DNA of 63,935 nt, counting the filler, from Reclinomonas americana ATCC 50394 (Eukaryota): the NCBI GenBank assembly GCA_048213135.1. It is 12 parts of 11 records of this genome, joined end to end, with 100 filler letters (N's around TTAATTAATTAA, not from the genome) between each part and the next. Parts side by side here need not be neighbours in the genome. Positions count along the whole stretch, not along the records: positions 16,191 to 25,249 come from PS016014.1; positions 25,350 to 31,219 come from PS016015.1; 10 more parts are not named here. One strand, written 5' to 3'. The notes under the pieces are model-generated. The model was not told where the DNA came from and did not search any database. It was given only the letters and a program-made list of their open reading frames with translations. A program made the position numbers and the translations under genes. Below are positions 19,480-54,900 of the stretch, piece after piece. How positions within the stretch are numbered: the stretch's first letter is position 1; the number at the start of each line of letters is the position of its first letter.

Positions 19480-22400
19480 TCATTCTGCTTCCACCACTGT
19501 GGCGAAGCCGTTGTCGAGGACGCGTAGCGCCTCTTCGACTTTGTTGCTGTCCACCAGGAGGAAGTCCTCGGAATACCTGAGAAGTGAAAGGGAAGAGGGA
19601 TGAGGGGGAAGGGGGATGAGGGGGAAGGAAGAGGGAAAAGAGGAGAGGGAGTGACGGAGACGAGGGAGGGGAAGGTGAAGAACACAAGAAAGAGCAGTGA
19701 AGAGCGGAGGGGACAGAAGGAAGGAGAACAGGGAGAAGGGAGAGGAGATGGGAGAATGGTCATCAAGACAGCTGTCGCTTTTGTTGGTGAATGAATTGTT
19801 GAGGGAAAAAAGACAAAGAAAGAAAGAAGAGATGAGAGAGGAGACGGAGACAGGTAATAGCGGCATTGGAAAGAGAAGCGGAACTGGAGAGAACGAGAAG
19901 AGGAGAGCGCAGTCAAGAGAGAGATGGGAGTCCTGCTTTTCTCTTTTGTGCAAACTTGACGTCTGCTGCTCCCTCCCTTCTCCCTTTCCCTTTCCTCCTT
20001 TCCCCCTTTCCCCCTTTCCCCTTCTCCCCCTCTGCACGCAACGTGGACAAGTAGAAAATGGAAATATGATGGCGCGCCAGCGGATTGCTGAGCATGTTGA
20101 CCGAGTGGTCGTCGCCCGAGCCCGACGCCGAGTTGCTCAACCGCATCGGCACCCACGACGACGAGTGCGCTACGAGCTTGTCACGCACTCGTGCCGGCAG
20201 CGACGCCCACCGCTCCTCCTCCACAATCACCGACACGTTCTTTTCGTCCCACGACATGGACAAGAAGTCGCTGCTTGACAGGGAAAGTGAGCACGCACCC
20301 TCGCTCCCTCCGACCCTTTTGCAAGGCACGACGCAACCCTTCATCCAGCAAAAAGAGCCGCACAAACTCGGCCAGGCAGTGCTCGAAAAACACCGCGCGC
20401 TCCGCATGCACCGTCATCACCCTCCTCGTCAGCGGCTGCACGACCACGCGCTGCTCCTCCGGCACCGACTCGGCGTCGTCGGCGTCCATGGCGACTGCCA
20501 CCACCGCGTCCTCTTCCCTGCGCTTGTCGGCCTTGAGTGCTCTGCTCAGGGCCTCGGTGGCCTCGACGAGTTCCTCCTCGCGCACGAGGAGGAGGTCAGA
20601 GTCGACGAGGGAGAGGTAGACGAGGGGGAGGTTGCGTTGGGCGAGGGGGCGGGCGAGGCCGGCGATGAGGCCGGTGGAGCCGAGGAGGTCGACGCCTTCC
20701 TCGACCTGGAGGGTAAAAGGGGAAGGAGTGAGGAAAGGGGAAGGGAGGGGAATAAGGGGAAGGGAGGGAGAATAAATGAGAAGGAGAGAGGGACGGGGAA
20801 GGGGTGGACCGAGGGCAAGCGAGATAAGGAGAGAAGGGAGGCAAGGGGCAGAATTGCAGCGAATGAGGAAAGTTGACAAGAAGAACGACGGAGTGGTCAA
20901 GGGAGAAAGAGGCGAGACAGGAAGAAATAAGAAAGAGCATAAACCAAGGCCGAAAGAACAGAAAGAAACAGCTTAACGCAAGGCAGAAAAAACAAGGAAG
21001 TGAGATCCGAAGCACAATCTTCGAGACAAAGAGTGACTGAGCAGCAGAGAAAGAGGAAAAGATAGCAAGAGAGTGCGCAGGAGAAAACAGAGAGAAAGTG
21101 AAAACAAGAACGGAGTTGGTCAGACAGAAAGACAGAGGAGACAGGAAGGAAAGAAAGAGAACAAAAAAGCAAGAGAGAGAGAGAGAGAGAGAGAGAAACA
21201 GCAAGAATTCGGAGTGAAGAGAATAAGAGACAAGAAAAATGAACAAAAAACAGACAGAGAGAGCGAGAAAGAGAGAATGGGACAACAGACAAAGTGAAGA
21301 GAAAGAGATGAGAGAGACAACAACAAACGAAAGACGCCAAGAACAGAGAGAGAGACTAAAAGGGAGCAGCAATAAAGGCAGACAAAGCAGGACAGACGGA
21401 TTGAGAGATAGCCCGCACGCAAGCCGCACAGAGAGAAGAGTGCACAAACAAAGAGAGACAGGTTCGATATCACCGCTGAAATACCTTGATGGCGCGATAC
21501 GAGTCACTGCTCACGACAATGGCACTGCGCGTGTGGCCTGCTCCCACGGGCACCGGCACGCACTTGCTCTGCGCGGCTCGAACATCGGCGTCGGTCAGCA
21601 GCAATGAGAGACCGCCTTCGTGTGTCCGCGTAATGTTGAGTACTGTTGAGTCACTGCGCGCGCGCGAATGCACGTGAGACACACGGCCGAACGAATGCAG
21701 AGAGATGTGGACTTTCGTGGTGCGAGAAGTTGATGTCGTGCAAGAGTGGGCAGGCAGGAGAAGAGTGCAGAAAAAGCGGGCTGCAAGATGAGGATTTAAG
21801 GAAGATAGACAACAAGAGTTCAAGGACAAGGATTGAAGGGGTTGAGGAACAAGGGTTGAGGGTTCGTAGACAGGGGGTTTGGGTGCAGAGTATTTTGTAG
21901 GTAGAGGGTTGAGGGGCAAGGGTCAAGGGGCAAGGGTTGGAGGAGTGCATGAAAAGCTCGTGGAACGCGAATTTGAAGAGCGGCGGAGGATATCGGAAAC
22001 AGGGAATAGAGTGCAAGAGAATGGAGCACTGTGAGAGACAGAGAAGGAGTGCAGGCGCTCTTCCAACAGCTCAGAGAAGAGAGAAGGGAAAGGAGAGCGA
22101 AAGGGAGATTCTCGTGCGCGAGGAGAGTCGCCCGACCAATCATGCAACAAACAGAAAGAGCGAAAGAAAAGGAGGGAGTAAGAGAGGAGGGAAGAAAGCT
22201 CTCAGAGGAGGCACACGTGCCTGCGAGAGAAGCAGGGGAGAAAAAGGGAAAAGAGTTCCGGAATCGAACACGCACGGTGTTGGTTGGGAGGTGCATGCCA
22301 CTCACTCATTCTCTCGCGCACACACAGGCACACACACGCACGAGCGCACACTTTCTCACTCTCACATTGAGCAAGCGCGGAGAAATGCCACTGCAGTCAA

Positions 22401-23190: not shown

Positions 23191-25488
23191 ATGGGTGCAG
23201 CTCAGAGGAAAGCGTGGGAGATGGCGAGTGATGGCGATGTGAATGCGCTGCGCGAGTTGGTGAAGCGGAAGGGCGCACAGACGCTGCTGAAGAGAAAGGA
23301 GATGGATGTGTAGCAGCTCGGCATTTTACAATGCCACTCGCAATGGCCCTCTCTCTGTGTTGGAGTATTTGTGGGAGGAGAGTGGTGTCGGGCCACAACT
23401 CGCACTGTTGGTCGACGACAAAGGCTGGACTCCACTGATGCAGGCTGCCGGCGTTGGGCATCTGCACGTGGTGGAGTGGTTGCTTGCCGATGAGCGACGA
23501 TGTCCGCCGGAGATGGTGCGGGCGGTCTCCAATGACCGTGACACTTATCCACAGTCGACGGCACTGCATTGGGCTGCCTGGCAAGGCTACGAAGCCGTGG
23601 TGCGACTCCTCGCCACTCGCTTTCCCGACCTCATTCCCATGGTCGACAACAAGGGCAAGACGGCGGCTCAGTGGGCACGTGACTTCGGCAAGCAAGAAGT
23701 GGCCGAGTTGCTCGACCGCCTCGCTGCGCAGCCAGCACCACCACGTCGCCAACAACAACAACAACAAGAACAGCCGCGACCGGCTCCTTCACCTCCTCCA
23801 CCGCCTCCGCAACAAGGTGTGCTCACTATTGCTACTGTCGACGATCTCTTCCTGCTCGCTCACTCTCCCGCCTCTTGTATCCATCGGTGACCCACAGCTC
23901 CGGCACGCCAGGTGAGTCTGGCGCGCTTCTACCGCATCTTGTAGGCCCCGCCTGATTCCCGTCTCTCATGCTCTTGTTCTCTATGTGCAGGCTTCTGCAC
24001 CGGTGGCGCCAGCCGGTGATGATTCTACGCTGGGCCGCCAGCTCGCCGAAAAGGATGCACTCAACGCCCAACTTCAACGCGACCTCGCCGCAGCGCAGCA
24101 GCAACAACGAGAATGGGAACGGCAGCGACGAGAACATGAAAGCGCCGTGGCTCAGCTTCAACGAACAAACGCAGGGCTCCAACAGAGCAAGGCCGAGATG
24201 GAGCGGCGGAACGAGGAGCTGCGACAAGGCATGGCCGACGAGGAACGGAAGAATGCCCACCTGCAGCGAACCATTACAGATCTCCAGCAACGCAGCGCAG
24301 AGGAGCAGCAGAGGAACGCGCAGTTGCAGCAAGGCAACACCCAGCTGCAAGCCGAACGGGATCGGGTCGTCTCCCTTTTGACCGTGGCTCTGCGTGACAA
24401 GGACGACCTCGCCGCGCAGCTGCACGAGAAGGACCAACTCGTCTCCCAGTTGCGACAGGATCTCCTCCTCGCCCAAGGTCTGTCTCTTGCCCTCCTTCTT
24501 CCTGATGATGTGCTTCCATGTTCTGTTCTGTGTCCTTCGTTCTCTCCATTTCTCATTTCCATTGACTTCCGCAGTCGACACTGCCGTGCAGCGCTTCGAG
24601 TGGCCGGAAATTTTACTCGCCACCGACTCTTTCTCCCCCCGCCTCAAGGTCGGCGAGGGTGGTCAGGGTGCTGTCTATATCGCTCTGCTTCGCGAGATGC
24701 ATGTGGCCATCAAGGTGCTCGATCAGGAAGCACCGTGGACGATGGAGTCGTTTGAGAGTGAGGTCTGTGTCTCCCCTCTTCTGCTTCTTCCCACTCTTCT
24801 CCTCATGTCCCTTCTTTGCTTTTGCAGGTGGCCACCCTCGGACGCCTGCGCAACCGTCGTATTGTGCCTCTTGTCGGTTACTCGGTGGGCGACGACAAGG
24901 CACGCTGTCTCGTGTACAAGGCCCTGCAGTGCGTGTTCATCTCTCTCTCTCTCTCTCATCAGTCATCGTCTCACTGAGGGAGCACACAGAGTTCCGAATC
25001 TGGAAGATCTGTTGCTGCTGCCACGAGCAGGTCGTGCGCCACTCACGGTCGTGCAGCGTGTGCAGATTGGTCTCGGACTGGCAGAGGCCGTGGTGTTCTT
25101 GCACAAGGTCAGCTGGAAGAGAACACCTTTCTGCATCTTTTATTCTTCCTCTGAGGCAGCCTTTCTCTCTATCTTTTCCACTCTTCTCTCCTGTCGCTCA
25201 CTTTACCGTGTTCGACGCTCCCTGTCTCTCTCTCTCTCTCTCTCTCGATNNNNNNNNNNNNNNNNNNNNNNNNNNNNNNNNNNNNNNNNNNNNTTAATTA
25301 ATTAANNNNNNNNNNNNNNNNNNNNNNNNNNNNNNNNNNNNNNNNNNNNACGAAGGACCGGTACGGTGGGTTCGTTTGTCGTCAACGTACGAGACTGAGA
25401 GAACTCTCTTTTTTCTCTCGGAGCTTCTCTCTATCTTTCCTACTCTTCTCTCCTCGTCGCTCACTTACCGTTCGTTCGTACGCTCCTC

Positions 25489-25533
<45 letters not shown>

Positions 25534-25712
25534 CGTCTCCCTCCTAAATGTGCTTCCTGCGTCGTGCCTCGCCTCTGTGTGGTTGTACCCCTTTCTCCAG
25601 TGCTTGGCGCTCCCAATCTCACATGTTCTCTGCTCCCCCACTCCTCCTCCCCTCCTCTCTCTCTCCTCTCTCTCTCGCTCTGTCTGTCTGTCTCTTTCTC
25701 TCTCGCGGTCTG

Positions 25713-25744
<32 letters not shown>

Positions 25745-26484
25745 TGTCTCTCTCTCTCTCTCTGTCTATCTCTGTCTGTCTGTCGTCTCTTTCTCTCTCG
25801 CTGTCTGTCTCTCTCTTTCTCCCTGTCTCCTTCTCGTTTTCTCTCACTCTCTCTTTCTGTCTGTGTGTCTCTCTCTGTCGCTTTTTCTCGCACTCTACCT
25901 TCCTGTTGTATTTTTCATGGTTTCTCCCTCGCCTCACTCACCTCCTCCCTCGCAGAACAATGTGGTGCACCGCGACATCAAGCCGTCCAACGTGCTCCTC
26001 GATCACCGCTTCGAGCCATGTCTCGGTGACTTTGGAATTGCGCGGTCGATCGCCGGAGGCAAGGTCTGCTCTTCTCTTCTCTTCCGTCTCTTTCTCGCCC
26101 TCGCTCACTCTCTAATCTCCCAAGTCAACTCCCGCCGCCGGCACGCCCGACTACATGGACCCACTGGCCATGCGCGCGAGGCAACCCCTCCCAGAGCACG
26201 ACGTCTACAGCATGGGCGTCGTGTTGGTGCAGCTGGTCACCAGCAAACCCGTTGTGACGGTGGGCGAGTGGTCCCTCGCGTGGGATCGCTCGCCAGCCTC
26301 ACTGCGCGTGATGGAGCTGATGGACGGTGGAGTGGAGTGGACTCCGCGCATCGCTGAACCGATGTTCGAGCTCGGCATGCGGTGCATGAGCGTGCGACGA
26401 GACAGACCGACGGCACAAGAGGCACTCGATGTGATGCGCTCGGTGCGCGAGGCGTGTGGGCAGTTCACGCTGGTTGTTGATTGA
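23191..26484 (+). pseudogene. Ankyrin / Pro-Gln linker / coiled coil / Pelle-IRAK-like kinase, copy 1; apparent frameshift near 23305-23316
   Basis: Colinear with 26936-29941 but 2 nt shorter after KEM, giving TAG at 23311-23313. Downstream exons are open (GEGGQG, VAIK, HRDIKPSN, DFG, GTPDYMDP, DVYSMG). Confidence 0.7.
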
Positions 26485-26935
26485 ATTGAAGGCAACGGTT
26501 TTGAGAAGAGAGCAGTGCACTTCTGACGGTGGTCTACTTGGTCTCAATCTTGAAGAACCTCCTGTTCCCTTGCAAGAGTGTGATGTGTGAACGAGACAAG
26601 ACAGGGAGGAGACTGCGAGGAGGTCGAGACAGAAAGCGAATTCGAGAGTTTCTTGCAACTTTCAAGGGAGGAGGTGAGACAGGAGGCCACGGTGTGGTCC
26701 GTGAGCGACACTGGCACATGCGCGTGAAAGCATTGAGCATTGGACACGTCGCGAAGTCGAATGCGAAGGCATTGCAAATTTAAAGTTGATGCACTTGCCT
26801 GGTGATATCGAAGCTTGTGGCGTCTCGGGTGATTGGATTCGTTATCGAGTGCTCACTGCTAACGAGAGTGCGAGCTGGTCATCGAACTGTCCTGTCAAAG
26901 TCATGTTCGGGTTCGACGCCGGTTGTTTTTTAAGA

Positions 26936-29900
26936 ATGGGTGCAGCTCAGAGGAAAGCATGGCAGATGGCGAGTGATGGCGATGTGAATGCGCTGCGCAA
27001 GTTGGTGAAGAGCAAGGGCGCACAGACTCTGCTGAAGAGAGAGGAGATGAGTGGGGCTGGCTGGTCGGCATTTTACTATGCCGCTCAGCAAGGCCATCTC
27101 CCTGTGTTGGAGTACTTGTGGGAGGAGAGTGGTGTCGGGCCACAACTCACGCAAATGGTCGACTTCTTTGGCAACACGCCACTGATGATTGCTGCCACAG
27201 GGGGGCGTCTGCAAGTGGTGGAGTGGTTGCTTGCCGATGAGCGACGATGTCCGCCGAAGATGGTGCGATCTGTCACCAATGAGGGCTCCACTTATCCGGG
27301 GTCCACTGCACTGCATTATGCTGCCGTGAATGGCCACGAAGACGTTGTGCAACTCCTCGCCACTCGTTTCCCCGACCTCATTCCCATGGTCAACAAGAAG
27401 GGCAGGACGGCAGCTCAATGGGCACGCTACTACGGCAAGCAACAAGTGGCCGAGTTGCTAGAGCTCCTCGCTGCGCAGCCAGCACCACCTCAGCAACAAC
27501 AACAACAACAACAACAACAACAGCCACGACCTGCCCCTTCCCCTTCACCTCCTCCACCGCCGGCTCAACAAGGTGTGCTCACTATCGCTATTGTCGACGA
27601 TCTCTTCCTGCTCGCTCACTCTCCCGCCTCTTGTATCCATCGGTGACCACAGCACCGGCACGCCAGGTGAGTCTGGTGCGCTTCTACCGCATCTTGTAGG
27701 CCCCGCCTGATTCCCGTCTCTCATGCTCTTGTTCTCTATGTGCAGGCTTCTGCACCGGTGGCGCCAGCCGGTGATGATTCTACGCTGGGCCGCCAGCTCG
27801 CTGAGAAGGATGCGCTCAACGCCCAACTTCAGCGCGACCTCGCCGCAGCGCAGCAACAACAACGAGAGTGGGATCGGCAGCGACGAGAACATGAAAGCGC
27901 CGTGGCTCAGCTTCAACAAACAAACGCAGGGCTCCAGCAGAGCAAAGCCGAGGCGGAGCAGAGGAACGAGGAGCTGCGACAGGGCAGGGCCGACGAGGAA
28001 CGGAAGAATGTCCAACTGCAGCAAACCGTCTCGGAGGAGCAGCAGAGGAATGCCCACCTGCAGCGAACCATTACAGATCTCCAGCAACGCAGCGCAGAGG
28101 AGCAGCAGAGGAACGCGCAGTTGCAGCAAGGCAACACCCAGTTGCAAGCCGAACGGGATCGGGTCGTCTCTCTTTTGACTGTCGCTCTGCGTGACAAGGA
28201 CGACCTCGCCGCGCAGCTGCACGAGAAGGACCAACTCGTCTCCCAGTTGCGACAGGATCTCCTCCTCGCCCAAGGTCTGTCTCTTGCCCTCCTTCTTCCT
28301 GATGATGTGCTTCCATGTTCTGTTCTGTGTCCTTCGTTCTCTCCATTTCTCATTTCCATTGACTTCCGCAGTCGACACTGCCGTGCAGCGCTTCGAGTGG
28401 CCGGAAATTTTACTCGCCACCGACTCTTTCTCCCCCCGCCTCAAGGTCGGCGAGGGTGGCCAAGGTGCCGTGTTCATCTCCATCCTCCGTGAGATGCACG
28501 TGGCCATCAAGGTACTCGACCCCGATGCACCGTGGACGAGGGAGTCGTTCGAGAGTGAGGTCTGTGTGTCGCTGCCTCTTCTCTTTCTTCTCTCTCCTTC
28601 TCCTCATCCTTCTTTCCCATCCTCGCAGGTGACCACCCTCGGACGCCTGCGCGACCGCCGCATTGTGCCTCTTGTTGGCTACTCGGTGGGCGACGACAAG
28701 GCACGCTGTCTCGTGTACAAGGCCCTGCAGTGCGTGTTCATCTCTCTCTCCTTCTCCCTCTTCTCCATCATCGTCTCACTGAGGGAGCACACAGAATCCC
28801 CAACCTGGAAGATCTGTTGCTGCTGCCACGCGCCGGTCGTGCTCCTCTCACGGTTGTGCAGCGTGTGCAGATCGGCCTCGGGCTGGCCGAGGCCGTGGTG
28901 TTCTTGCACAAGGTCAGCTGGAAGAGAACACCTTTCTGCATCTTTCATTCTTCCTCTGAGGCAGCCTTGCTCTCTTTGCTTGCACTACTTTCTCTCCTGT
29001 CGCTCACTTTGCCGTGTTCGACGCTCCCTGCCTCTCGCTCCTTTTCTATCTCTCTCTCTCTTTTCGTCTCCTTCCTAATGTGCTTCGTGCGTCGTGCCTC
29101 GCCTCTCTGTGTTTGTACTCCTTTCTCCAGTGCTTGACGCTCCCAATCTCACATGTTCTCTACTCCCCCACTTCTCCTCTCCCTCTCTCTCTCCCTCTCT
29201 CTCGCGCTCTGTCTGTCTGTCTCTTTCTCTCTCGCGGTCTGTCTCTCTCTCTCTGTCTCTCTCTTTGTCTATCTCTGTCTCTTTCTCTCTCGCTGTCTGT
29301 CTCTGTCTCTGTCTGTCTCTCTCTCTCTCTCTACCTTCCTGTTGTATTTTTCATGGTTTCTCCCTCGCCTCACTCACGTCCTCCCTCGCAGAATAATGTC
29401 GTGCACCGCGACATCAAGCCCTCCAACGTGCTTCTCGATCACCGCTACGAACCCTGTCTCGGTGACTTTGGCATTGCGCGGTCGATCGCCGGGGGCAAGG
29501 TCTGCTCTTTTTCTCTCCTCTCTCTCTCTTCTCGCCCCCACTCACCTTCTCTCGTCTCCCAAGTCAACTCCCGCCGCCGGCACGCCCGACTACATGGACC
29601 CACTGGCCATGCGCGCGAGGCACCCCCTCCCGGAGCACGACGTCTACAGCATGGGTGTGGTGCTGGTGCAGCTGGTCACCAGCAAACCAGTGGTGACGGT
29701 GGGCGAGTGGTCCCTCGCGTGGGATCGCTCTAGATCTCCTGCCTCACTGCGCGTGATGGAGTTGGTGGATTCCAGCGAAGGAGTGGAGTGGACTCCACGC
29801 ATCGCTGAACCGATGTTCGAGCTTGGCATGCGGTGCATGAGCCTTCGACGCGATATCGATCGACCGACAGCGCAGGAGGCACTCGATGTGATGCGCTCGG

Positions 29901-29941
29901 TTCGCGAGGCGTGTGGGCAGTTCACGCTGGTTATTGATTGA
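26936..29941 (+). CDS. Ankyrin / Pro-Gln linker / coiled coil / Pelle-IRAK-like Ser/Thr kinase, copy 2 (intact)
   Basis: About 4-5 ankyrin repeats (GNTPLMIAA, STALHYAAVNGH), poly-Q/P linker, Gln-rich coiled coil, and kinase RFEWPEILLATDSFS..KVGEGGQGAVF, VAIK, HRDIKPSNVLL, DFG, DVYSMGVVL, split by short GT-AG introns. Confidence 0.88.
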
Positions 29942-31711
29942 ATTGAAGGCAATGGTTGTGAGCCGAGAGTGGTGCCCGCTGGCGACTGTTTTCTTGGTCT
30001 CGATATCAACGTCGCGACTTCGATCGACACTCCCTCCCCGTTCCTCCTGCTCCTTCACGCTGAAAATCACCAAGCACCCACGTCACTACCTACACTTGCA
30101 ACGTCATAACTGCCGCTCCTCCCATCCACGAAACGTCGCCTCCACACAGGACACTCGCCACTCNNNNNNNNNNNNNNNNNNNNNNNNNNNNNNNNNNNNN
30201 NNNNNNNNNNNNNNNNNNNNNNNNNNNNNNNNNNNNNNNNNNNNNNNNNNNNNNNNNNNNNNNNNNNNNNNNNNNNNNNNNNNNNNNNNNNNNNNNNNNN
30301 NNNNNNNNNNNNNNNNNNNNNNNNNNNNNNNNNNNNNNNNNNNNNNNNNNNNNNNNNNNNNNNNNNNNNNNNNNNNNNNNNNNNNNNNNNNNNNNNNNNN
30401 NNNNNNNNNNNNNNNNNNNNNNNNNNNNNNNNNNNNNNNNNNNNNNNNNNNNNNNNNNNNNNNNNNNNNNNNNNNNNNNNNNNNNNNNNNNNNNNNNNNN
30501 NNNNNNNNNNNNNNNNNNNNNNNNNNNNNNNNNNNNNNNNNNNNNNNNNNNNNNNNNNNNNNNNNNNNNNNNNNNNNNNNNNNNNNNNNNNNNNNNNNNN
30601 NNNNNNNNNNNNNNNNNNNNNNNNNNNNNNNNNNNNNNNNNNNNNNNNNNNNNNNNNNNNNNNNNNNNNNNNNNNNNNNNNNNNNNNNNNNNNNNNNNNN
30701 NNNNNNNNNNNNNNNNNNNNNNNNNNNNNNNNNNNNNNNNNNNNNNNNNNNNNNNNNNNNNNNNNNNNNNNNNNNNNNNNNNNNNNNNNNNNNNNNNNNN
30801 NNNNNNNNNNNNNNNNNNNNNNNNNNNNNNNNNNNNNNNNNNNNNNNNNNNNNNNNNNNNNNNNNNNNNNNNNNNNNNNNNNNNNNNNNNNNNNNNNNNN
30901 NNNNNNNNNNNNNNNNNNNNNNNNNNNNNNNNNNNNNNNNNNNNNNNNNNNNNNNNNNNNNNNNNNNNNNNNNNNNNNNNNNNNNNNNNNNNNNNNNNNN
31001 NNNNNNNNNNNNNNNNNNNNNNNNNNNNNNNNNNNNNNNNNNNNNNNNNNNNNNNNNNNNNNNNNNNNNNNNNNNNNNNNNNNNNNNNNNNNNNNNNNNN
31101 GGACCGTCTGTGTGTGTCAAAGTGCGTGAGAGAGAGGCAGGGGGACAGACAAGAGGAGAGAGAGAGAGTAACGATGTAGTCGTCATCTTGGGAGCACTCA
31201 AAGCGCGGAGTGATCATTTNNNNNNNNNNNNNNNNNNNNNNNNNNNNNNNNNNNNNNNNNNNNTTAATTAATTAANNNNNNNNNNNNNNNNNNNNNNNNN
31301 NNNNNNNNNNNNNNNNNNNTTTTGTATCTTTCCCTTTGCTCTTGCTCCCCTCATTTCCCCCTGCTCTCGCTGTACCGTTTTCCCTGACTCTCCCTGTCCC
31401 CTTTCCCCCTGCGCTCTCTATCCACGTCCCCCCAGCTCTCTCTATCCACTTTCCCCTCTGCTCTCATTATCTCCTTTCGTATTGACACTGCGCCCCCGGT
31501 CTCCTTTCCCCCTGCTCTCCCTGTACCCTTCCCTTTGCTCTCTTTCTGTATCATTCCGCCCCTTCTCTCCTTGCCCCCCGTTCCCCCTGCGCTGTGTGTC
31601 CTCTTTCCCCGTGCGCTCTCTCTTGTGTGTCATTTCCCCCTGCTCTCTCTGTCCACATTTCCCTGCACCCCCTGTCCCCTTTCCCCCTTCGCTCTCTCTC
31701 TCTCCGCCATG

Positions 31712-51925: not shown

Positions 51926-54900
51926 GTGGGTGTGGGCGTGGGTCGAGTGGATGTCGATGCGGATGATGTGGGAGAGGGAGTTGGAGTGGTGAGGATGTCG
52001 GTGGAGGAGGAGCAGGCGGAGGAGGAGCGGAGGAGAGTGAGAGCGGTGAGTGAGAGAGAGTGTGTGTGTGTTTTGGTGTCTGTGTGATCATCTTGTGTGT
52101 GTGCATTGATCTCTGTCTTTTCACTCATTTCCTTCTTTTGTTCCTTTTCTCTCCGCTTTATCGTTTTCTTCGTCTCGCCTCTTCCTTCTCCTCCTCTCTA
52201 TCTTCACTTTTACACTTGTTTCCTTCTTTTGTTCTCTCTTCTTCTGTCTTTTCCTTCTTCTCCAAAGTCTTTGTGCTCTCTCTTTCTCTTTTCCTCGTGT
52301 CTTTGCTCTCAACCTTTCTTTCTCTCTCCGTCTTCTCCCCTCCTCTTTGTCTCTCATTCCCGTCTTCATTTGTTCTGTTCTCTTCTTTTCTCCTCCTTCT
52401 CCTTCTCTTCTCTCCGCGTACGCTCACTCGCTCACCCTTACTCATCTCCTTGCTCTCAACAAACCTTGTCTTTGCTTTCTTTCTCCATCTGCTCATCTCT
52501 TCCTTCTCCTCCTCTCTATCCCTTCGCTCTTTACACACATTCCTTGCTTCCCTTCTTTCTTTATCTCGTCTCCTTCTTCTTCTCTCCTCCACTCTCATTC
52601 CGTCACTCTTTGCACTCATTCCTTTCTTTATTGTTCTTCCTCCTCCTTCTCCTTTCCTTCTCTCCGCGTACGCTCACTCACTCACCCTTACTCATATCCT
52701 TGCTCTCAACAATCCTTGTCTTCGCTTTCTCTCTCCCCTTGTCTCGCTCTCTCCTCTCCTCTCCACCTCTTCACATTCACTCCTCCTTCCCCTCACCCTC
52801 GTCTTCTCCGCAGTTCGATCCCATGTCCGTGCTGCAGTCACCCGAACTCGCACGCATCACGCGTCTGTTGGAGAAGGCAAGCCTCCTCATCCTGCACTCC
52901 ACCCACCCACCCGCCGACTCATCCCCCCGCCTTCTCATTCACAGCAAGAATGCCGCCTGATGACCATTGGCCGCACCAACACGTTCCGTCTTCTCTCCGT
53001 CCCCTTCCCCCTTAATCTCCCCAGTCACTCATTCCGCCTGCAGCGGCAAGTCCACGCTGTGGAACGCATTTCTCGGTGTCCCCCGTCTCCTCCGTCGCTC
53101 GAGTCGTGCATGCACACCTCGCATTGTGGAGCTCGGACACGGCGAGGTCGGCGAGGCGGTACTGCTGGACGCGCAGGGGCAGGTGCTAGAGTCGCGGCGC
53201 CTGGAGGGTCTCCGACTGCCCGACGACATGGTACGCCGACTGGCGCCGAGCCAGCGCATGCCGGCCGGCAGTGGGGTGGTGGGAGCGGCGGGAGTGGATG
53301 TGGCCGACGAGGAGCAGGTCGGGTGTGTGGTGTGCTGCCAGCTGCCGCTGACGGTGCTCGACACGGGTCTGTGCGTGATTGATTCGCCGGGCCTGGGCGA
53401 GCTGCCGTCGTTGGATGCGGTGGTCAAGCAGCAGGCCGCGGAGGCTGACGGTATTATTTACATTATCGACAGCAGGGATCCCATGAACCGGCAGGTGTGT
53501 GGAGAAGGGGAGAAGGGGCGAAGAGAGAGAGAGAGAGGGAGAGACAGGATGTGTGTGCTTGTGAGTTTCCTCTTGAATCGGTTGCTGTTTTGCCCTCATG
53601 AGAGCGTCATTGTCATTCCAAGAGTCGCCGTTGTCTCTTTCAACTACTTTTCTCACTCTCTCTGGTTGTTTGAGTTTCCTCGCGAATGGAGAAATGTTTG
53701 CTGCGCTCCCCCGCCCTTGGGTCTTTGTATGTAGTTTTAATCACGTTGTTTAATCCTATATCTGTCTCTTTCTATTGACTTCTCTCTCAGCGAGTTTGTG
53801 AGTATCCTCGCAAATCGCCATTGTACGCTGCATTTTAAAACGACACAGTTCGCTCCCTTGACCCTTGGCCATCGTTTCTGGCACTCTCCTTTTCTCTCCT
53901 CCCTCTATTTCATCGTCTGCCTCACTCTGTTCGCCACTTTCTCTTCCCCTGCGTGCCTGTGAGGCATCCCGCAAGTCTGTTGCCCTCTCCCATTGTAGTT
54001 TGTCGTCGACGCGCCGCATTCCATGCGTGATAGTCTCCTTCTCCTGCTTTCTCCCTCTCTCCCCCTGCTCTCTCCAATCTCTAACACCCTTCCCCTTTCC
54101 ACTTCCTCCTTCCTCCAGGACGTGGACACCCTCCGCGAACTCGCCGCCCTCGGCACCCCCATCATGTTCCTCGTCAACCTGTGGCAACGAGCCGACGACG
54201 ACGAAGACGATGATGAAGAGGAAGACAGTGAGGCGGCGGGAATGAGGGAGCTGGAGGCGCTGGAGATGACCATTCGGGAGTTGCGTTCGCGGACTTGTCA
54301 ACCCACCCGTCTTCTCGGTGTCCTCTCGATTGTCTCTCTGCCTCCGCGCCATCATTTCTGCTCTCTCCCGTCTATCTTCAACTCCTCCGCTCTCAGTCGT
54401 CCTCACTGGCTGTCAATCTGCTGCATCCGCGCGGTTATCTCTGCCTCTCCATCCTCCATTTCGTGACTCCCTTTCTATCTCTCGTTCGCTCTCTCTCTCT
54501 CTCGATCACTCTCTCTCTCTCTCGCTACCCCTCTATGTTCGTGACACCTTCTCCCTATCCTCCATTTATTGTGATGCCCTCTCTATCTATCACGCTCTCT
54601 ATCGCTCACTCTCTCTCTCTCTCTCTCTGTTTTGCCCCTCCATGCTCGTGACCCGCTCTGTCCATCCATTTTCAAGACGCCCTTCTCCCTCCTTCCCACC
54701 TTAATCCGCCACACCGTTCTTCCCCCTTCTCAGGCGCTTGCGGGACGTCGGCATGGCCCCCGATGCCTCACGATTGCAGTTTGTCGATGTCAAGCAGGCG
54801 GTCTGTACCATCGTTTCCCTTGTTCTCCAATCAACATTTTGCTCATCACTGACTCACGTTGCTTCTGCACAGTGGCGCGCCTCGGCCGTGAGTCGCCATG

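Follow-up and report, generated by a model that had tools for sequence, protein, structure and literature searches.

A tandem gene pair in Reclinomonas americana predicted to encode ankyrin, coiled-coil, IRAK/RLK-type kinases with differences concentrated at candidate binding positions of the ankyrin head

Closest described systems and the locus

IRAK/RLK-type kinases (RLK, receptor-like kinase) form the core of innate-immune signalling in plants and animals, and to our knowledge they have barely been characterised outside plants and animals. In a stretch of 63,935 nt from Reclinomonas americana ATCC 50394 (the whole DNA that was analysed, referred to as the window), one gene was found to be present twice, head-to-tail on the forward strand, extending from the ATG of copy 1 at 23191 to the stop of copy 2 at 29941 (Table 1). 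The protein layout of copy 2 comprises an N-terminal cap (N-cap), four ankyrin (ANK) repeats, a Q/P linker, a coiled coil of approximately 160 aa, and an RD Ser/Thr kinase. The two genes are best interpreted as tandem members of a protist multigene family whose soluble proteins join ANK repeats and a coiled coil to an RLK/Pelle/IRAK-type kinase, and no description of an architecture joining ANK repeats, a coiled coil, and an IRAK/RLK kinase was found in the literature searched. The comparison of the copies suggests, with a probability of about 0.6, adaptive divergence of ANK binding specificity after duplication, in which contact residues would have been pushed apart by selection for different partners.

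Plant receptor-like cytoplasmic kinases (RLCKs) of the BIK1/PBL type resemble the window protein in being soluble kinases of the RLK/Pelle type, and exon 8 of the window gene aligned with BIK1 over 118 aa. The window protein differs from them in its ankyrin N-terminus and its non-plant host, and the comparison is one of best match, not of orthology; no description of an ankyrin N-terminus on RLCKs was found in the literature searched. In animal IRAK/Pelle kinases the likeness lies in the kinase itself, as IRAK1 or IRAK4 was the first or second PDB match for exons 4, 6, 7, and 8, and IRAK4 is likewise an RD Ser/Thr kinase. The window protein differs from these in having no death domain, and its oligomerisation would use the coiled coil, not a death-domain assembly of the Myddosome type. 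In a eukaryote-wide kinome tree, an IRAK4-type kinase was inferred in the last eukaryotic common ancestor, according to the account given there (10.1101/2020.01.27.920793). For PUB33 of the RLCK-IXb group, an alpha-helical region ahead of the kinase is described as a predicted coiled-coil homomer that self-associates in yeast two-hybrid (10.64898/2026.02.10.704836). The coiled-coil stalk is thus a likeness to RLCK-IXb/PUB33, whereas the window protein carries neither a UspA nor a U-box domain.

For the ANK head, the best structural match was to N3C designed ankyrin repeat proteins (DARPins; TM-score of approximately 0.85 on the target), and the copies differ most at positions that are randomised in DARPin libraries. 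DARPins are engineered, whereas the natural domain adds two conserved loops (EESGVGPQL and ADERRCPP) and variation at repeat positions 10, 16, and 18. For the hypervariable ANK repeat domains of fungal NLR proteins, Dyrka et al. (2014, PMC4986451) placed the polymorphic sites and those under positive selection on the concave face (inner helices and hairpin), with one exception. In the window, too, the hairpin and inner helix hold most of the variation, with some also in the turn between the helices and, separately, at positions 16 and 18. The fungal ANK array is described in that source as C-terminal to a NACHT/NB-ARC NTPase and as made of near-identical repeats with number polymorphism, whereas the window proteins have four dissimilar repeats N-terminal to the coiled coil and kinase, and their variation is between paralogues.

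ANK repeats are also joined to kinases of the tyrosine kinase-like (TKL) group in ILK and TNNI3K, which belong to other kinase families. Two further ANK-kinases, P0002 and P0007, share ANK repeats and a kinase with the window protein, and P0002 combines numerous ANK repeats at its N-terminus with a helical stretch and a kinase at its C-terminus; membership of the same family was rejected for both, since their kinases are only 23-25% identical to that of the window. In Phytophthora infestans, the 15 ANK repeats of PITG_06288 precede a TKL-group kinase (PMC3019232), an order shared with the window protein, but PITG_06288 is placed there in an oomycete-specific subfamily. The five IRAK-class kinases of oomycetes are predicted in the same source to be inactive and, as described in it, are without ANK repeats.

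Predicted kinase, stalk, and ankyrin head

The window is eukaryotic draft sequence with approximately 55% G+C outside gaps and with many N gaps and linkers. Exon borders were placed by motif and then tested for GT..AG and reading frame. As one gap-free stretch (25350-30163) holds all of copy 2 together with the 3' portion of copy 1, the tandem arrangement is directly supported; no third copy was detected in the window by tblastn. An earlier reading of this DNA (the original prediction) had overlooked a frame break in copy 1. Three-frame translation and DNA alignment revealed that copy 1 lacks 2 nt of the copy 2 sequence at approximately 23310, near codon 40, and as assembled it contains an in-frame TAG. 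Beyond the break, copy 1 is open again in the shifted frame with every motif intact. The break could be a real lesion or an error of the draft assembly, and because this assembly is stitched, single-base frame errors of this kind are plausible.

The kinase exons were searched one by one against all PDB chains, which resulted in weak E-values. The best matches were a LysM receptor kinase (4.4e-5), IRAK1 (7.3e-5), and CERK1 for exon 4; BRI1 only for exon 5; IRAK1 only for exon 6; IRAK1 (6.8e-7), closely followed by MKK7, BAK1, and NEK2, for exon 7; and BIK1 (3.3e-5 over the 118 aa mentioned above, including an RLK-style C-lobe), followed by IRAK4, FERONIA, and BRI1, for exon 8. The top match in these single-exon searches was therefore an IRAK or a plant RLK/RLCK for all five kinase exons, which supports assignment of the predicted kinase to the IRAK/Pelle/RLK type at the best-hit level, and the Pelle/IRAK-type kinase of the original prediction was borne out at that level. 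The nearest named Atlas clusters for exon 8 were plant PK_Tyr_Ser-Thr kinases, regarded as a lead only, and a search with this exon for longer homologous proteins returned no match at E<=1e-3. In copy 2, GEGGQGAV, VAIK, HRDIKPSN, and DFG are located at residues 420, 437, 534, and 554, respectively, and HRD is present in both copies, indicating an RD kinase. Apart from an altered APE motif, which is unusual beside an otherwise complete catalytic set, the motifs of an active Ser/Thr kinase are all present, and the kinase is predicted to be probably catalytically active.

The Kyte-Doolittle mean over 19 aa peaked at 1.41, within the kinase, which is below a transmembrane score, and the N-terminus is polar; the protein looks soluble, consistent with the cytosolic protein proposed earlier. 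Only ANK families, and no death domain, were found on exon 1 by Pfam search, and no death, TIR, or NB domain was found by Pfam in the protein. Of the features of an RLK proper, none (signal peptide, ectodomain, or transmembrane helix) was found. Having no death domain, ectodomain, or transmembrane helix, the protein is RLCK-like and is neither an IRAK nor an RLK proper. N-myristoylation at the conserved MGAAQRK start was considered and rejected, as residue 6 is Arg, whereas the consensus favours a small residue.

The L/I/V/M residues of exon 3 showed a periodicity of 3.5 residues (power of 1.94 against a shuffle mean of 0.15, matched by 0 of 2000 shuffles), and the exon is free of proline beyond residue 15. 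A homodimer model of the coiled coil scored 0.53, whereas the best control scored 0.00; at least 92% of the contacts were common to the runs, and the predicted local distance difference test (pLDDT) of the partner was at least 86. Among proteins with solved structures, the mark applied to homodimers was attained by 21 of 30 that form pairs of one chain and by none of 23 single chains, and for eukaryotic proteins by 17 of 29 and none of 30, respectively. The modelled contacts were parallel and in register (residue i against residue i), with a continuous a/d pattern from residue 14 to 176, and the model supports a stalk in the form of a parallel, in-register coiled-coil dimer.

The N-terminal exon had been read as an ankyrin domain, which was confirmed by Pfam matches to Ank_2 (1.8e-23; 83.3 bits against a cut-off of 27.3) and Ank (6.3e-21) and by an AlphaFold2 model built from a four-sequence alignment (pLDDT of 90, predicted TM-score of 0.86), which comprised the N-cap and four helix pairs in a DARPin-like fold. 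In copy 2, exon 1 is divided into the N-cap (aa 1-38) and repeats R1-R4 (aa 39-178), followed by a Q/P-rich linker. In a Foldseek search with this model, the top 50 matches, headed by the N3C DARPins, were all DARPins or ANK designs. The two loop insertions named above are long and identical in both copies.

Divergence of the ankyrin head and its explanations

Amino acid identity between the copies was 73% for the ANK repeats, against 97% for the coiled coil and 95% for the kinase. The N-cap differed at 4/38 aa, with silent divergence (dS) of 0.134, replacement divergence (dN) of 0.046, and dN/dS of 0.34; the ANK repeats at 38/142 aa (dS 0.233, dN 0.183, dN/dS 0.78); the coiled coil at 5/163 aa (dS 0.132, dN 0.016, dN/dS 0.12); and the kinase at 15/292 aa (dS 0.332, dN 0.028, dN/dS 0.08). 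Replacements in the ANK repeats were approximately seven times those in the kinase at similar silent divergence, and the possibility that the ANK exon is simply older was rejected, since its dS is not above that of the kinase (0.23 against 0.33). The coiled coil and the kinase are under strong purifying selection.

The ANK positions that differ were examined with a test set fixed beforehand, namely repeat positions 2, 3, 5, 13, 14, and 33, which we take to be the set randomised in DARPin libraries; residues 39-43 beside the frame break were excluded. The pre-chosen positions differed at 14 of 20 residues, compared with 24 of 115 elsewhere (Fisher one-sided p=2.8e-5), so the clustering of ANK differences noted in the original prediction is beyond chance, and the variable and scaffold peptides quoted there are all present in the sequence. 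Additional hot positions were 10 (three of four repeats), 16 (three of four), and 18 (all four). According to the secondary structure of the model, the differing share was 9/29 in the inner helix, 6/11 in the inter-helix turn, 16/57 in hairpins and loops, and 7/38 in the outer helix, which is nearly fixed beyond its first two residues (3/30 differ). The variable residues lie, as had been proposed, on elements of the presumed binding face: the hairpin, the inner helix in its second half, and the turn between the helices. The scaffold stretches were almost without silent change (1/45 nt and 0/42 nt).

At the 20 pre-chosen codons, the proportion of replacement sites that differ (pN) was 0.503 (24.4 of 48.5 sites). 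The neutral references were 0.203 for the silent sites of ANK R1-R4 (p=3e-4), 0.218 for the silent sites of the whole gene (p=4.6e-5), 0.268 for the silent sites of the kinase (p=0.0019), and 0.207 (125/603) for the diverged introns 4, 6, and 7 (p=1.7e-5). Diversifying selection, as proposed earlier, finds partial support, at these codons (0.50 against 0.20-0.27) but not in the domain as a whole, where dN/dS was 0.78.

Among the introns, identity between the copies was 97.5% in intron 1, 98.7% in intron 2, and 100% in intron 3, and 61.5% in intron 4, 92% in intron 5, 81% in intron 6 (373 gap columns), and 84% in intron 7; mismatches amounted to 3/256 nt in introns 1-3 and 125/603 in introns 4, 6, and 7. 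Both flanks were less than 65% identical. Between intron 1 and the beginning of exon 4, eight of nine 100-nt windows were at least 95% identical, and this mid-gene tract has probably been homogenised recently by gene conversion. Because introns 1-3 lie inside it, they provide no neutral yardstick for the ANK exon. The earlier statement that adjacent introns are nearly identical accordingly holds for introns 1-3 but fails for introns 4, 6, and 7, with intron 5 at 92%, and the contrast drawn between identical introns and a variable ANK exon is confounded by the tract. Similarly, the kinase exons said to be nearly identical are so in protein, but their DNA is 89-94% identical, with mostly silent changes (dS 0.33).

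An exhaustive protein search with the ANK exon recovered one close relative, P0187 (154 aa, 72% identical), the remainder, as in a search for longer homologues with this exon, being mostly giant generic ANK proteins. P0187 is an open reading frame derived from an expressed sequence tag (EST) in EukProt, labelled Reclinomonas americana (jakobid), and is the nearest relative of the pair; its EST origin indicates that some member of the family has transcripts in this organism or a close relative of it. Over residues 44-146, the pairwise identities of copy 1, copy 2, and P0187 were 71, 73, and 78%. In this three-way comparison, the pre-chosen positions were variable at 10 of 14, compared with 26 of 89 elsewhere (p=0.003), and three different residues occurred at 5 of 14, compared with 4 of 89 elsewhere (p=0.002); these four remaining three-state sites were position 10 (twice), position 18, and one hairpin-loop residue. 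At the 30 sites that differ between copies 1 and 2, P0187 agreed with copy 1 at 13 and with copy 2 at 8, and 9 differed three ways, indicating that the intact copy 2 changed at least as much and that the divergence is not decay of copy 1 alone. A more distant member, P0270 (183 aa, from a 2056-nt contig), is 44-47% identical in the ANK head and shares the N-cap, the layout, the loop insertion (SDERHFP), and the Pro-rich linker end; the family therefore extends past the three close paralogues. A profile search for near relatives gave P0187 and P0270 as the only family members, the others being generic ANK proteins, and a metagenome scan with conserved peptides of the family gave 378 pattern matches, none of which was confirmed. 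Residues ~135-154 of P0187 resemble an out-of-frame translation of the conserved DLIPMV...TAAQWA, representing a read error or a frameshifted member.

In the proposed mechanism, the coiled coil would join two chains as a parallel, in-register dimer, and the ANK heads would bind a putative protein partner via the surface of hairpin, inner helix, and turn. Partner binding or clustering would unite the kinase domains for trans-autophosphorylation and then downstream Ser/Thr phosphorylation. After duplication, selection for different partners may have driven the binding faces apart, with gene conversion keeping the stalk uniform and purifying selection presumably conserving the kinase. The pair joins an apparently active IRAK/RLK-type kinase to a small ANK head whose contact residues would outpace neutral sites, the rest of the protein being frozen. 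It offers a compact test case for how new recognition specificities arise while the signalling chassis stays fixed, and a candidate receptor-like sensor in a protist group in which functional genetics is nearly absent.

Several points weigh against adaptive divergence. The domain-wide dN/dS of the ANK repeats is below 1, and the value of 1.09 for R1-R2 alone is not significant (p=0.54). The silent proportion (pS) of the same 20 codons was 0.40 (4.6 of 11.5 sites), against which the excess of pN is not significant (p=0.42), and all selection figures come from the pairwise comparison of two DNA sequences. Binding-surface positions of ANK repeats are generally the least constrained and vary across ankyrin proteins, so that enrichment alone is expected. 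The surface mapping is based on canonical repeat positions and DSSP, and positions 16 and 18, at which seven of eight residues differ, begin the outer helix, off the classical concave face. Copy 1 carries the frame break, both gene models are predicted from sequence, and the APE motif reads YMDPL in both copies, with the glutamate replaced by Leu (29564-29600; 26125-26161). Finally, the ANK ligands are putative, and endogenous and foreign partners may both be compatible with the data.

Neutral drift, in which exposed ANK positions have been unconstrained since an old duplication and the scaffold, stalk, and kinase are under purifying selection, is conceivable but doubtful. The domain dN/dS of 0.78, the non-significant value of R1-R2, and the comparison of the binding codons with their own silent sites all fit with drift, and the same positions vary in ankyrin domains generally. 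However, drift predicts equality, yet pN at the pre-chosen codons is 1.9-2.5 times every neutral reference (p=1.7e-5 to 1.9e-3), and the three paralogues carry three different residues at five of the 14 pre-chosen positions.

A narrower version of adaptive divergence, reached by analogy only, is a family of non-self (immune) sensors, in which recognition of molecules from pathogens, prey, or viruses at the ANK faces would set off an IRAK-type defence signal; we consider this unlikely. The kinase is RD (HRDIKPSN), whereas pattern-recognition receptor kinases are typically non-RD, a correlation only; no death, TIR, or NB domain was found by Pfam, and divergent paralogues that bind different endogenous substrates would produce an identical pattern. 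In its favour are a variable binding face atop a conserved signalling chassis, the tandem duplication, a kinase type used in plant and animal innate immunity, and the positively selected ANK repeats that are described as sensor domains in fungal NLRs (PMC4986451). With equally little confidence, one may picture a deep-branching, free-living, jakobid-like flagellate with a germline repertoire of cytosolic receptor kinases, the DARPin-like ANK face of which would sense bacteria, viruses, or prey, and the coiled-coil dimer of which would relay ligand binding to the IRAK/RLK-type kinase. If true, this module for innate-immune sensing would use ANK repeats in place of LRR, TIR, or death domains, and the coupling of an IRAK-type kinase to a variable repeat sensor would be older, or more often reinvented, than plants and animals suggest.

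Patchwork conversion, in which short tracts from more diverged paralogues would have imported the clustered differences and shuffled old variation, is rather improbable. Gene conversion is evident in the pair from introns 1-3, further family members exist (P0187 and P0270), and P0187 agrees with copy 1 at some sites and with copy 2 at others. This agreement, however, alternates residue by residue and not in runs, the interleaved conserved codons are nearly without silent change, though an imported diverged tract should carry some, and selection would still be required to maintain the diversity.

Decay of copy 1 as a dead gene, with the ANK differences as its product, is very improbable despite the 2-nt deficit and the TAG at 23311-23313, since copy 1 is otherwise open and has kept its kinase motifs in full, the kinase dN/dS is 0.08, the differences are uneven and fall at contact positions, the unique residue is in copy 1 at 8 of 30 sites and in the intact copy 2 at 13 (the other 9 differing three ways), and the break may itself stem from misassembly in a gap-rich draft.

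Gene coordinates and neighbouring features

The coordinates of both gene models and of the surrounding features are given in Table 1. Micro-exon 2 was placed solely by frame and splice signals, and its sole difference between the copies is silent (GCT/GCA); as read directly from the sequence, use of another acceptor, 22 nt inside exon 3, would likewise preserve the frame. The placement of the 42-nt segment of copy 2 is approximate because it lies inside an internal repeat.

Table 1. Predicted features of the tandem gene pair and other features of the window (CDS, coding sequence)
Feature	Positions	Strand	Remarks
Copy 1 gene	23191-26484	+	8 exons, all borders GT..AG; CDS of 2002 nt (1 mod 3)
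Copy 2 gene, intact	26936-29941	+	8 exons, all borders GT..AG; open CDS of 2073 nt, 690 aa
Exon 1	copy 1, 23191-23816; copy 2, 26936-27572	+	ANK exon; 84% DNA identity between copies
Exon 2	copy 1, 23898-23911; copy 2, 27653-27666	+	14-nt micro-exon, inferred; preserves frame
Exon 3	copy 1, 23991-24477; copy 2, 27746-28274	+	coiled coil; 176 aa in copy 2
Exon 4	copy 1, 24575-24762; copy 2, 28372-28559	+	kinase
Exon 5	copy 1, 24828-24928; copy 2, 28629-28729	+	kinase
Exon 6	copy 1, 24990-25107; copy 2, 28795-28912	+	kinase
Exon 7	copy 1, 25956-26063; copy 2, 29392-29499	+	kinase
Exon 8	copy 1, 26125-26484; copy 2, 29564-29941	+	kinase
Kinase domain, copy 2	28372-29941	+	exons 4-8; GEGGQGAV, VAIK, HRDIKPSN, DFG, GTPDYMDP; Pfam Pkinase on exons 7 and 8
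Frame break, copy 1	23309-23313	+	2-nt deficit relative to copy 2; in-frame TAG at 23311-23313
Probable homogenised tract	copy 1, 23809-24666; copy 2, ~27565-28463	+	intron 1 to exon 4 start; 91-100% identity per 100-nt window
42-nt segment	28007-28048	+	14 aa, two heptads; in copy 2, not in copy 1; 42 gap columns
Intron 6	copy 1, 25108-25955; copy 2, 28913-29391		848 nt (copy 1) and 479 nt (copy 2)
Assembly linker in intron 6 of copy 1	25250-25349		44 N, TTAATTAATTAA, 44 N
Second tandem pair, first frame	1323-3155	-	open frame of 610 aa
Second tandem pair, second frame	4071-6191	-	open frame of 706 aa
Open frame with ACT_7 match	20181-20972	-	5e-08
Open frame with Dynamin_N match	52964-53734	+	3.4e-09

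Intron 6 is CT-rich and microsatellite-like and interrupts the kinase immediately before the HRD catalytic loop; the other introns are short (61-97 nt). Eleven pairs of 44-N runs occur in the window with 12 bases between the partners, TTAATTAATTAA being those bases at 25294-25305, and the window also holds seven N gaps of 340-961 bases each.

The second tandem pair carries mid-frame ankyrin repeats, and its two frames are 55% identical over 539 aa (E 2e-180); its layout is unrelated to that of the kinase genes, and Pfam gave no further domain for it. The frame matching ACT_7 lies approximately 2 kb upstream of copy 1 on the opposite strand and is probably an exon of a neighbouring gene. The frame matching Dynamin_N probably belongs, as an exon, to a gene for a dynamin-family GTPase.

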